Source: Escherichia coli (GTDB lineage Bacteria > Pseudomonadota > Gammaproteobacteria > Enterobacterales > Enterobacteriaceae). From it: a stretch of 64,000 nucleotides of DNA. The notes under the pieces are model-generated. The model worked only from the letters and a program-made list of their open reading frames with translations. It ran no database searches and was not told where the DNA came from. Location of the stretch: assembly GCF_003018235.1 (NCBI RefSeq), contig NZ_CP027437.1. One strand, given 5' to 3'. Shown here piece by piece: positions 16,531 to 42,153 of this stretch. Every line of letters starts with the position of its first letter. The stretch's first letter is position 1. A program made the translations under genes and the position numbers.

Positions 16531-16630
16531 ATGCCGGATGCGGCGTGAACGCCTTATCCGGCCTACAAAAATCTTGCCAATTCAATATATTGCAGGACCA
16601 CGTAGGCCTGATAAGCGTAGCGCATCAGGC
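16531..16630. repeat. pair of REP-like palindromic units between fepA and entD
   Basis: gccggatgcggcgtgaacgccttatccggcctac and gtaggcctgataagcgtagcgcatcaggc are classic enterobacterial REP sequences in opposite orientation. Confidence 0.5.
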
Positions 16631-16667: not shown

Positions 16668-17288
16668 ATGAAAACTACGCATACCGCCCTCCCCTTTGCC
16701 GGAAATACGCTGCATTTTGTTAAGTTCGATCCGGCGAGTTTTCGCGAGCAGGATTTACTCTGGCTGCCACACTACGCACAACTGCAACACGCTGGACGTA
16801 AACGTAAAACAGAGCATTTAGCTGGACGAATCGCTGCTGTTTATGCCTTGCGGGAATATGACTATAAATATGTGCCCGCTATCGGCGAGCTACGCCAACC
16901 TGTGTGGCCTGCGGAGGTATACGGCAGTATTAGCCACTGCGGGACTACGGCATTAGCCGTGGTATCTCGTCAACCGATTGGCATTGATATCGAAGAGATT
17001 TTCTCTGTACAAACCGCAAGAGAATTGACAGACAACATTATTACACCAGCAGAACACGAGCGACTCGCAGAATGCGGTTTAACCTTTTCTCTGGCGCTAA
17101 CACTGGCATTTTCCGCCAAAGAGAGCGCATTTAAGGCATCGGAGAGACAAACTGATGCAGGATTTCTGGATTATCAGATAATTAGCTTGAATAAACAGCA
17201 GATCATCATTCGACTAGAGGATGAGCAGTTTGCTGTGCACTGGCAGATAAAAGAAAAGATAGTCATAACGCTGTGCCAACACGATTAA
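16668..17288 (+). CDS. entD: phosphopantetheinyl transferase EntD
   Basis: Track ORF 16518..17288 reads through the REP units; start trimmed to MKTTHTALPF (ATG 16668) by recognition of EntD. Confidence 0.85.
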   Translation: MKTTHTALPFAGNTLHFVKFDPASFREQDLLWLPHYAQLQHAGRKRKTEHLAGRIAAVYALREYDYKYVPAIGELRQPVWPAEVYGSISHCGTTALAVVSRQPIGIDIEEIFSVQTARELTDNIITPAEHERLAECGLTFSLALTLAFSAKESAFKASERQTDAGFLDYQIISLNKQQIIIRLEDEQFAVHWQIKEKIVITLCQHD

Positions 17289-17437
17289 TTGACAATACCC
17301 GGAGCGATTCGCCCGCAGCCAATGCTGACTGCGGGCGAAAGTGTAAAGCAGGTGCCTTACTACTCTGACCTGACAACCGGATATGCGGGGATTACTCCCA
17401 TAAGCGCTAACTTAAGGGATTACTCCCCGCACAACGG

Positions 17438-17590
17438 CTACTTCTTCGGTTCGTAAGCGAGAACAGCCTTAAACTCAATATTACGTTCCTTCACCGTAAA
17501 CTCACACAGCGAGTCGCGGACCAGAAGCGTAAATCCCAGCACCGTTAAACACAGCACTATGACTGCCACAAGGGCATATTTCGTCAGCAT
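17438..17590 (-). CDS. hokE: Hok-family membrane toxin, copy 1 (one substitution versus HokE: G25R)
   Basis: 50 codons [50 protein letters not shown]; overlapped out of frame by the mok-like ORF 17502..17735. Confidence 0.8.
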
Positions 17591-17735
17591 GTTTATATTG
17601 CCTCCATGCGAAGAAGGGACTACCATCCGAGTTGTTGAGGTTCGGAGTGGCAGCCCCAGGATTGATAGAAATATCTCCTGGGGCTTCATCTTTCCAGATC
17701 TCAGAGTTAACCTGAAACCGGAAAGCTTCAGGCAC
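17502..17735 (-). CDS. Mok-like overlapping reading frame of hok copy 1
   Basis: 77-aa ORF in a different frame covering most of hok, the arrangement known for hok/sok loci. Confidence 0.5.
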
Positions 17736-17940
17736 CCGCAGCTATCTTACCTTTCCTCAACAAAATAGCTGTTTATTTATACAGCAAATCCTGTTTCGGA
17801 CTTCTGTTGGCAAAACTGATCATTGCCCTTAAAACGACATCGCCCGCAGCCATTGCTGACCGCGGGCGAAAGTGTAAAACAGGTGCCTTACCACCCTGAC
17901 CTGACAACCGGATATGCGGGGATTGCTCCCCGCACAACGG

Positions 17941-18093
17941 CTACTTCTTCGGTTCGTAAGCGAGAACAGCCCTGAACTCAATATTACGTTCGTTCACCGT
18001 AAACTCACACAGCGAGTCTCCGACCAGAAGCGTAAATCCCAGCACCGTTAAACACAGCACTATGACTGCCACAAGGGCATATTTCGTCAGCAT
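17941..18093 (-). CDS. Hok-family toxin, copy 2 (K34N and K41R versus HokE)
   Basis: [50 protein letters not shown]; mok-like ORF 18005..18193 overlaps. Confidence 0.75.
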
Positions 18094-18193
18094 GTTTATA
18101 TTGCCTCCATGCGAAGAAGGGACTACCATCCAAATTGTTCAGGTTTGGGTAGGTAGCCCCAGGGTTGATAGAAATATCGTCCTGGGGCTTCAT
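18005..18193 (-). CDS. Mok-like overlapping frame of hok copy 2 (N-terminus differs from copy 1)
   Basis: 62-aa overlapping [16 protein letters not shown]... Confidence 0.4.
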
Positions 18194-18444
18194 CTTTCCA
18201 GACCTCAGAGTTAACCTGAAACCGGAAAGCTTCAGGCACCCGCTGTTATCTTACCCTTCCTCAGCAAAATAGCTGTTTATTTATACAGTGAATCCTGTTT
18301 CGGACTTCTGTTGGCAAAACTGATCATTGCCCTTAAAACGACATCGCCCGCAGCCATTGCTGACCGCGGGCGAAAGTGTAAAACAGGTGCCTTACCACCC
18401 TGACCTGACAACCGGATATGCGGGGATTACTCCCCGCACAACGG

Positions 18445-18597
18445 CTACTTCTTCGGTTCGTAAGCGAGAACAGCCTTAAACTCAATATTACGTTCCTTCA
18501 CCGTAAACTCACACAGCGAGTCTCCGACCAGAAGCGTAAATCCCAGTACCGTCAAACACAGCACTATGACTGCCACAAGGGCATATTTCGTCAGCAT
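18445..18597 (-). CDS. Hok-family toxin, copy 3 (identical to the HokE sequence I recall)
   Basis: [50 protein letters not shown]; here the hok frame stays open upstream to 18741 and begins with the Mok N-terminus (MPEAFRFQV...), i.e. the mok and hok frames are fused. Confidence 0.75.
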
Positions 18598-19028
18598 GTT
18601 TATATTGCCTCCATGCGAAGAAGGGACTACCATCCAAATTGTCTGGTTTGGAGTGGCAGCCCCAGGGTTGATAGAAATATCTCCTGGGGCTTCATCTTTC
18701 CAGACCTCAGAGTAAACCTGAAACCGGAAAGCTTCAGGCACCCGCCGTTATCTTACCCTTCCTCAGCAAAATAGCTGTTTATTTATACAGTGAGTCCTGT
18801 TTCGGACTTCTCACTCCTCATTTGATCAACTGAAGCTGAACCCGTTTTTTTCTGCATGCCTCAATCGTCAAAATTCTTCGCCACCAGCCAGCTCTGCCAT
18901 AACTTGTCACATTGCAAAAGTAGCCAAATTGCTTCAGTCACCATCACCAAAAAAAAGAAACATTCCAGAACTTCCGCATCTCGCCCAGCCGCTCCGACTT
19001 CTATACTGAATAGAAAACGCCAACATAA

Positions 19029-31536: not shown

Positions 31537-32968
31537 GCCATTTCAGCGCCCGTTTTCGCTGGCAACCCGCCTGACCTTTTTTATCAGCCTGGCCACCATC
31601 GCGGCGTTTTTCGCCTTTGCCTGGATCATGATTCACTCGGTAAAAGTGCATTTTGCTGAGCAGGATATTAATGATTTAAAAGAGATTAGCGCCACACTCA
31701 AGCGCGTTCTTAATCATCCCGAAGAGACACAAGCCCGACGCTTAATGACGCTGGAAGATATCGTCAGTGGTTATTCCAATGTGTTGATTTCCCTGGCAGA
31801 TAGCCAGGGTAAAACGGTGTATCACTCCCCCGGTGCGCCGGATATCCGCGAGTTTACGCGTGACGCCATACCCGATAAAGACACGCGGGGCGGCGAGGTG
31901 TATCTCCTTTCCGGCCCGACGATTATGATGCCGGGCCACGGTCACGGGCATATGGAACACAGCAACTGGCGGATGATTAACTTGCCGGTTGGCCCGTTGG
32001 TGGACGGCAAACCGATTTATACGCTCTACATCGCGCTTTCGATCGATTTTCATCTTCATTACATAAATGATTTGATGAATAAACTTATTATGACCGCATC
32101 GATCATCAGCATCCTGATCGTCTTTATCGTGCTGTTGGCGGTACATAAAGGTCACGCACCGATCCGCAGCGTCAGCCGTCAAATCCAGAACATTACCTCG
32201 AAAGATCTCGACGTTCGCCTTGACCCGCAGACCGTGCCGATTGAGCTGGAACAGCTGGTACTGTCGTTCAACCATATGATCGAGCGTATTGAGGATGTCT
32301 TTACCCGCCAGTCCAATTTCTCAGCGGATATCGCCCACGAAATTCGTACACCAATTACGAATCTCATAACGCAAACGGAAATCGCCCTCAGCCAGTCGCG
32401 CAGCCAGAAGGAGCTGGAAGATGTGCTCTACTCTAATCTCGAAGAGCTGACGCGAATGGCGAAAATGGTCAGCGATATGCTGTTTCTCGCCCAGGCCGAT
32501 AACAACCAGTTAATCCCCGAAAAGAAAATGCTCAACCTGGCGGATGAAGTCGGCAAAGTGTTCGATTTTTTCGAGGCATTAGCGGAAGATCGCGGCGTGG
32601 AGTTGCGGTTTGTTGGTGACGAGTGTCAGGTTGCGGGCGATCCGCTGATGCTGCGTCGGGCGTTAAGCAACCTGCTTTCGAACGCCCTGCGTTATACGCC
32701 GCCCGGAGAGGCGATTGTAGTGCGCTGCCAGACGGTCGATCACCAGGTGCAAGTTTCCGTCGAAAACCCCGGTACGCCCATTGCGCCCGAGCACTTACCG
32801 CGATTGTTTGACCGTTTCTACCGCGTTGACCCCTCCCGCCAGCGAAAAGGCGAAGGTAGCGGCATTGGTCTGGCGATAGTGAAATCGATTGTTGTCGCGC
32901 ATAAAGGCACGGTTGCAGTAACGTCAGATGCTCGGGGGACAAGGTTTGTTATCACATTACCCGCTTAA
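31526..32968 (+). CDS. cusS: sensor histidine kinase CusS
   Basis: Start ATG 31526 ([10 protein letters not shown]) overlaps the cusR stop; H-box [11 protein letters not shown]. Confidence 0.9.
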
Positions 32969-33117
32969 TTATTCAGCAAACGGCAACTTTTATAACCAGT
33001 GTAAAAATAACGTGCCGCAATAGTCATACCTATTAATGGTAAAAAGCTGTCACAATTCATAAAAAACCTTAATATACGCCACCCTAAACATAACCAGCGT
33101 TAATGTAAGGTTTTTGT

Positions 33118-39205: not shown

Positions 39206-39739
39206 ATCTCCTCCAGGTAAGTCGGGTACGACCTGGCTTACCTCTTTCGCTCTCGTCAGAATTCCATCAAGATTAATTGCTAAAAAGCGTGCTAAAGAAA
39301 GAAGATCGTTATCGGCGAACGGGCCGATCACTCATGCAGGAAGCATAGATCCTTTGAGCGGAGTTTCTGATATCTGAGGAGTGCGAAATGCAATTGAGCA
39401 GCAGTGAACCTTGCGTGGTGATCCTGACCGAAAAAGAGGTAGAGGTAAGCGTTAATAACCATGCCACGTTTACCCTTCCGAAAAACTACCTGGCCGCCTT
39501 CGCGTGCAACAATAACGTCATTGAACTCTCAACGTTAAATCACGTATTAATCACCCACATCAACCGCAACATCATCAACGATTATCTGTTGTTTTTAAAT
39601 AAGAACTTAACCTGCGTAAAGCCCTGGTCGCGGCTGGCTACCCCGGTTATCGCTTGTCATAGCCGTACACCGGAAGTGTTCCGGCTAGCCGCCAACCACA
39701 GCAAGCAGCAACCCAGCAAACCCTGCGAAGCGGAGTTGA

Positions 39740-41810
<2,071 letters not shown>

Positions 41811-42153
41811 TCAAAGCGATATTCAGCATTACTGGAATCTGCGAATTGTCGCCAGTTCGCTATGTTTAAGCCCCAGCCTGCTCAAAAAGAAATTAAAAAA
41901 CGAAAATACCAGCTATAGCCAGATTGTCACAGAGTGTCGTATGCGTTACGCCGTACAGATATTATTGATGGATAACAAAAATATCACTCAGGTAGCGCAA
42001 TTATGTGGCTATAGCAGCACGTCGTACTTTATCTCTGTTTTTAAGGCGTTTTACGGCCTGACACCGTTGAATTATCTCGCCAAACAGCGACAAAAAGTGA
42101 TGTGGTGAAGGGCAAAGCGGAAACAGATAAGACGGGCATAAATGAAGAAGAAA

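Follow-up and report, generated by a model that had tools for sequence, protein, structure and literature searches.

Organisation of the hokE array

The window, the whole stretch of 64,000 nt from the Escherichia coli contig NZ_CP027437.1 that was analysed, displays the gene order of an E. coli-type chromosome (entE...fepA-entD, the hokE array, ybdK-nfsB-cus) and is collinear with strain CFSAN018748. Between entD and ybdK, three hokE/sokE units are arranged head to tail on the minus strand with a period of 504 nt. The entD gene is located on the plus strand, ends at about position 17288 and is convergent with hokE copy 1. The tandem array was established by repeat finding combined with alignment; Tandem Repeats Finder returned nothing for it, probably because the 504-nt period lies beyond the limit of the program. 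One full-length match to Rfam RF01794 is present per unit (83.6-84.1 bits, gathering score 59), and the three reading frames encode Hok proteins of 50 aa that are 96-98% identical to K-12 HokE; the same gene is annotated as hokE in homologous genomes. Most E. coli genomes contain one or two hokE units, with a median of 2 places per genome. The main features of the array are the following:

17309-17338, minus strand: terminal 13-bp stem-loop of copy 1, common to the convergent entD 3' end (inverted repeat and fold; no T-run after it)
17351-17357, minus strand: fbi-like element AGGCACC (mRNA sense), complementary to the mRNA 5' end, GGUGCCU at 17730-17736
17438-17590, minus strand: hokE copy 1 coding region, 50 aa, G25R (translation; hokE annotation in homologous genomes)
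17730-17737, minus strand: tac-like 5' end of the hokE copy-1 mRNA, GGGUGCCU, first position of the RF01794 match; pairs with fbi in the folds
17941-18093, minus strand: hokE copy 2 coding region (translation)
18445-18597, minus strand: hokE copy 3 coding region (translation)

The G25R substitution of copy-1 Hok (codon 25, window 17516-17518) results from two base changes, GGA to CGC, and is found neither in copies 2 and 3 nor in K-12 and four other genomes compared. Copy-2 Hok carries K34N and K41R. The RF01794 'sok' matches (window 17582-17737, 18085-18241 and 18589-18743) are located on the hok-sense (minus) strand and end at the hok AUG. What they represent is therefore the leader of the hok mRNA and not the antisense Sok RNA; in K-12, the sokE annotation is on the strand opposite to hok. 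In a terminator scan, the stem-loops of copies 2 and 3 (17830-17870 and 18334-18374) scored as terminator-like with TGTCGTTTTA and that of copy 1 (17300-17340) was not found; the copy-1 stem-loop directly adjoins the 3' end of the convergent entD and for this reason has no T-run.

Three further observations concern the surroundings of the array. The fepA-entD spacer contains a match to the small RNA ES036 (CssrF) of Rfam (16568-16609, 42.2 bits, gathering score 37.6). At about 32949-32971, between cusS and nfrB, the window lacks an island of approximately 10 kb that is present in CFSAN018748 and comprises vgrG, a DcrB-related protein, a metallopeptidase-toxin protein and ISEc1. An element of the IS21 family at 39800-41750 (istA, 340 aa, 39862-40884; istB, 260 aa, 40881-41663) splits a gene for an AraC-type regulator resembling envY (halves at 39388-39795 and 41764-42108); this insertion is not found in CFSAN018748.

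An additional segment downstream of hokE copy 1

Alignment of the three 504-nt hokE units leaves copies 2 and 3 gapped over 28 columns opposite copy 1, and repeat finding gives a repeat spacing of 531 versus 504 nt across this site. The extra 28 nt occupy positions 17400-17427 and read ataagcgctaacttaagggattactccc on the plus strand. They consist of a 16-nt core, ATAAGCGCTAACTTAA, and a second copy of the 12-nt sequence GGGATTACTCCC. Since GGGATTACTCCC stands on both sides, at 17388-17399 and 17416-17427, the gap can be shifted by up to 12 nt. In mRNA sense, copies 2 and 3 read UAG-CCGUUGU-GCGGGGA-GUAA-UCCCCGC-AUAUCC, and copy 1 reads ...GCGGGGAGUAAUCCC-UUAAGUUAGCGCUUAU-GGGAGUAAUCCC-CGC..., so that GGGAGTAATCCC-TTAAGTTAGCGCTTAT-GGGAGTAATCCC is the product in copy 1.

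The site follows the stop codon of hokE copy 1 (17438-17440, minus strand) at a distance of 10 nt and, in mRNA sense, is upstream of the fbi-like element and the terminal stem-loop. The initial annotation had reported an extra segment in the hok 3' untranslated region, situated between the stop codon and the terminal stem-loop, partly duplicating the adjacent sequence and missing from copies 2 and 3. Its sequence, its position, the duplication and its restriction to copy 1 are borne out by the alignment, and a comparison of positions with R1 hok, where the stop codon is followed by a GC hairpin, fbi and the terminator, would place the segment inside the transcript.

Similarity to the terminus of IS186

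The 16-nt core agrees at 16 out of 16 positions with the terminus of IS186, both in IS186B (hokE) and in IS186A (hokC) of K-12. When the flanking C and GGG, which are common to the duplication, are counted, the match to the IS186 end extends to 20/20. The corresponding 20-mer, CATAAGCGCTAACTTAAGGG, occurs once in the window, as compared to 0.00 expected, so that a chance occurrence is excluded. Only a part of the 23-nt terminal inverted repeat of IS186, CATAAGCGCTAACTTAAGGGTTG, is present, namely its first 16 nt or 20 nt with the shared flanks. The two copies of GGGATTACTCCC are the same target-site duplication that surrounds IS186B in K-12. The transposase gene and the second inverted repeat are absent, and since only 16 nt lie between the duplications and no other IS186 end is found in the window, the segment is a remnant and not an element. 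The relevant features are:

17382-17433, minus strand: extended post-stop hairpin of the hokE copy-1 mRNA, with a 10-bp outer stem UGUGCGGGGA/UCCCCGCAUA predicted by folding around an extra helix
17388-17399: target-site duplication GGGATTACTCCC, entD/fbi side; junction with the IS end intact
17400-17415, minus strand: 16-nt remnant of the IS186 terminal inverted repeat, very probably, matching IS186A and IS186B of K-12
17416-17427: target-site duplication GGGATTACTCCC, hok side, a direct repeat of 17388-17399; abuts the putative deletion junction TTAA/GGG (plus strand)
17918-17931: intact IS186 target GGGG(N6)CCCC, coinciding with the copy-2 post-stop hairpin; empty site (motif scan)
18422-18435: intact IS186 target GGGG(N6)CCCC, coinciding with the copy-3 post-stop hairpin; empty site (motif scan and alignment)

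The annotated IS186B of K-12 MG1655 lies between hokE and entD; its insertion point agrees with that in the window to the nucleotide, and so does its 12-bp duplication. The junction sequences are ...gcgGGGAGTAATCCC/ATAAGCGCTAACTTAAGGGTTG... on the left and ...CAACCCTTAAGTTAGCGCTTAT/GGGAGTAATCCCcgcatatcc... on the right (the slash marks the boundary). Read directly on the K-12 sequence, the element is located 22 bp after the hok stop codon if the duplication is counted. Pedersen and Gerdes reportedly described in 1999 that IS elements lie next to chromosomal hok genes, with IS186 at 22 bp past the reading frame. The window shares with IS186B of K-12 the insertion position, the 12-bp GGGAGTAATCCC and the hairpin with its GGGG(N6)CCCC, and IS186A downstream of hokC is a homologous case. 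In contrast to K-12, the window keeps the terminal 16 nt only, without the transposase gene and the other inverted repeat, and its hok coding region is rejoined to fbi and the terminal stem-loop.

The insertion preference of IS186 fits this position. In mutation-accumulation data, its target was identified as GGGG(N6/N7)CCCC, a motif with only 54 occurrences per genome (PMC5009759). The hokE hairpin GCGGGGAGTAATCCCCGC conforms to it, and the unoccupied paralogous sites read GGGGATTGCTCCCC (copy 2) and GGGGATTACTCCCC (copy 3); these two hairpins hold the only GGGG(N6)CCCC motifs in the 64-kb window. In K-12, IS186A sits in the homologous hairpin of hokC, GGCGGGGAGTGATCCCCGCC, and the register of its duplication is the same. 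Strain 98232, which has a two-copy hokE array, carries IS186 in the same hairpin of the ybdK-proximal copy with the same 12-bp duplication (L003, 1262-2600); the hot spot has been used independently there. Copy 1, with its scar, has GGGGAGTAATCCCT and TGGGAGTAATCCCC instead; as neither half fits GGGG(N6)CCCC, the IS186 target of this copy is lost.

Taken together, the 28 nt very probably go back to an IS186 element (IS4 family) which formerly resided in the 3' untranslated region of hokE copy 1, was lost by deletion and left this scar as a passive relic. The initial annotation described the segment correctly but missed this identity. Features of this kind, in which an IS remnant is accompanied by its target duplication, are known; the scar of the window itself seems not to have been reported before.

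Distribution in E. coli genomes

A 58-nt probe spanning the scar finds a full match in 2 of 5,426 complete E. coli genomes, NZ_CP148331 (Korea) and NZ_OZ547136 (UK). Each of them contains an array of two units, of which the entD-proximal one bears the scar. The identity of these 58 nt in two independent complete genomes rules out an assembly artefact. The first 36 nt of the probe find a match with 100% identity in about 1,420 genomes of the same set; they represent the junction of a complete IS186 at the hokE site. Nearly all other hokE loci are without the segment. The empty site on the window's own flank allele is represented by CFSAN018748, which is identical over 110/110 nt downstream of the scar and does not have the 28 nt.

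Probing of the complete E. coli genomes revealed only intact IS186 junctions where a mirror-image scar at hokE or a scar of either orientation at hokC was sought, and the absence of both indicates that the scar is not a frequent outcome. Pattern scans of species-representative genomes and metagenome contigs gave no short inserts (1-31 nt) between two copies of the duplication, and the scar was not traced outside complete E. coli genomes.

The flanks of the scar differ by two SNPs within 30 nt between the window and the loci L002 and L007, and over kilobases the window flanks are 1.5-3% diverged from all compared genomes. Presence of the scar on such differing backgrounds suggests age and recombination or gene conversion between copies, or else recurrence. 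Over 25 kb (window 19000-43999), identity to the nearest of the 5,426 genomes reaches no more than about 98.5%, and the lineage of the window is therefore not represented among them.

A deletion model for the loss of IS186

The two 12-nt repeats around IS186B of K-12 are 1,337 bp apart. Joining CCC/ATAAG to CCC/TTAAG in this sequence reproduces the window base for base. The left-hand CCC ends the left duplication, the right-hand CCC is located inside the right inverted repeat (caaCCCttaag), and 1,321 bp are deleted. Of the two octamers that meet at the join, CCCATAAG belongs to the left junction and CCCTTAAG to the interior of the distal inverted repeat; they agree in 7 of 8 nucleotides. As in nearly precise excision, the deletion begins and ends in short direct repeats that lie at the inverted ends or inside them.

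A scenario of two steps can be proposed. IS186 would have inserted into the GGGG(N6)CCCC of the copy-1 hairpin GCGGGGA-GUAA-UCCCCGC, 10 nt past the stop codon, an insertion that is directly visible in other genomes, and would thereby have duplicated GGGAGTAATCCC. A deletion of 1,321 bp between the near-identical octamers may then have followed, the first octamer being formed by the end of the left duplication and the first bases of the element. It would have removed the transposase gene and the whole element save its last 16 nt, which were left with the second copy of the duplication. The most likely route is slipped mispairing or microhomology-mediated deletion rather than transposase cutting; we infer this route from the product. 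As a consequence, the 10-bp stem would re-form from one arm of each duplication copy and enclose an extra helix, the hok coding region would again be contiguous with the fbi element and the terminal stem-loop, and the fold-back pairing is predicted by folding to be unchanged. The parent state is a reconstruction because a complete IS186 on a window-type flank is not found in the collection, where a synthetic parent junction is matched at 95.6% at best.

In transposons such as Tn10, nearly precise excision does not depend on transposase: the sequence between short direct repeats close to the inverted ends is deleted, and a small remnant stays behind. The scar resembles this process in the placement of its end points, which fall into a short direct repeat at the boundary of IS and flank and within the opposite inverted repeat, and in the survival of a small remnant with both copies of the duplication. 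It differs in the much shorter repeat (3 nt exact, 7/8 extended) and in the rarity of the IS186 event in natural genomes. A strict microhomology of 3 nt is short for slippage and counts against the model. Excision of IS elements is a rare event also in mutation-accumulation experiments, with one event in 520 lines (PMC5009759).

Two other origins of the 28 nt have to be weighed against slippage or microhomology. The studied members of the IS4 family, to which IS186 belongs, move by cut-and-paste, and it is conceivable that the scar is the footprint of a transposase-mediated excision followed by joining of the donor ends. Cleavage at the element ends, however, cannot have given the window product: it would leave two copies of the duplication with no bases of the inverted repeat between them, and such a duplication-only footprint was detected by probe in none of the 5,426 genomes. 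E. coli, moreover, is not known to possess a classical end-joining pathway. The scar retains an intact IS/flank junction on one side and 16 nt of the inverted repeat, so that microhomology or slippage deletion is the better model, and cut-and-paste is improbable. Replication errors, on the other hand, can yield a direct repeat flanking a short insert, and the segment might accordingly be of local origin, with a slipped 12-nt duplication, a 16-nt filler and a coincidental likeness to IS186; alternatively, it might be an ancestral sequence lost from copies 2 and 3. The 16/16 (20/20) match stands precisely at the nucleotide at which the complete element, flanked by the same duplication, is inserted in about 1,420 genomes, and local origin is thereby effectively refuted. 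Ancestral loss is opposed, like local origin, by the nearly universal lack of the segment at other hokE loci, the closest flank allele included. Either variant has next to no probability.

The post-stop hairpin and its predicted folding

An R1-type hok locus, retrieved by protein search, was compared with hokE by layout and not by alignment. It is composed of the stop codon, about 10 nt, the GC hairpin GGCGGGC-GCAG-GCCCGCC, about 30 nt, the fbi element GAAGCGCC and a terminator hairpin, the fbi being complementary to the 5' GGCGCUU. A search for plasmid hok homologues of hokE at the DNA level returned only hokE itself. As DNA, hokE and R1 hok cannot be aligned, and it is from position that we infer that the hokE hairpin may be the counterpart of the terminal stem of the truncated R1 hok mRNA. 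Both are GC-rich hairpins right after the stop codon and upstream of fbi; the correspondence is one of position and layout only. In R1 hok, the stem is required for the stability of the truncated mRNA, and the substitutions G345A and C358A, which break C-G pairs, abolish this mRNA, an effect that the authors attribute to 3'-5' exonucleases (PMC9841398). The tac/fbi model is summarised in the same study (PMC9841398). Stability of the mRNA is a relevant question for hokE copy 1 because the counterpart of its hairpin in R1 controls the truncated hok mRNA. A complete IS186 splits this stem and parts the coding region from fbi; the scar rejoins both.

Local folding gives -38.1 kcal/mol with the scar versus -25.9 kcal/mol for the intact hairpin, the new inner helix being formed by UCCC/GGGA and the partly palindromic remnant of the inverted repeat. 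The scar adds exactly -12.2 kcal/mol (ddG) in every construct, that is, in the full-length mRNA with two 3' ends and in the truncated mRNA. Outside the 28 nt, the minimum-energy structure is identical with and without the scar, and the pair probabilities of the outer stem are 0.98-1.0 with and 0.96-1.0 without it. The complementary tac and fbi sequences, GGUGCCU and AGGCACC, pair with a probability of 0.99 in copies 2 and 3 and of 0.19-0.985 in copy 1, depending on the 3' end. For three 3' ends of copy 1, the mean probability of the seven tac-fbi pairs with and without the scar is 0.985/0.985, 0.279/0.279 and 0.194/0.194, and in copies 2 and 3 it stays at 0.99/0.99 when the scar is transplanted into them. 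The lower values of copy 1 with long 3' ends (0.19-0.28 versus 0.99) are due to SNPs in the flank, for example CCUGCUUUAC versus CCUGUUUUAC. These SNPs are common to the entD-proximal copy of K-12 and other genomes, and the low tac-fbi pairing is therefore not caused by the scar.

The initial annotation had proposed that the indel could alter mRNA activation or stability through the fold-back inhibition of hok mRNAs. A more general form of this proposal holds that the 28 nt are a regulatory change in which the longer 3' untranslated region affects fold-back inhibition, 3' processing or stability and, by this means, the toxin activity of copy 1. The stability part retains some substance, since the segment lies inside the stem-loop whose R1 counterpart controls the truncated mRNA, and the predicted gain of 12.2 kcal/mol in hairpin stability could slow down 3' exonucleases or shift the folding kinetics. 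The fold-back part receives no support: tac-fbi pairing is equally probable with and without the 28 nt in every construct, including the transplants, the minimum-energy fold outside them does not change and the outer stem is kept. A regulatory change is on balance unlikely and, whatever its effect, the origin of the segment would still be an IS186 remnant. A more far-reaching idea arises because IS186 targets, in several paralogues, the very hairpin that hok mRNAs need for the active truncated form. The hairpin might act as an IS186 off-switch for chromosomal hok genes and the scar might be a selected reversion by which copy 1 was switched on again. If so, the deletion would have rebuilt the stem from two duplication halves, and loss of the motif would bar renewed silencing of copy 1 by IS186; we regard such a reversion as very unlikely. 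The passive relic of IS186 remains the preferred reading. Judged solely by thermodynamic prediction, with chosen 3' ends that are models, the scar is probably neutral or slightly stabilising for the hokE copy-1 mRNA, its predicted effect being a longer and stronger hairpin with unchanged fold-back inhibition.

Implications

The main value of the finding lies in the correct annotation of the indel, which is very probably an IS186 footprint and not a regulatory innovation; the understanding of hok/sok or of IS186 is not changed by it. Visible scars are very rare (2/5,426), and IS186 is either seldom lost at this site or usually lost precisely and without a trace. The hairpin that is conserved after the stop codon of hok mRNAs is at the same time a hot spot for IS186, which occupies it at hokE in about a quarter of the complete E. 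coli genomes and also at hokC. The scar of the window very probably illustrates that IS186 can be lost in nature, and that the remaining 16 nt and 12 nt then rebuild the hairpin and remove the target motif.
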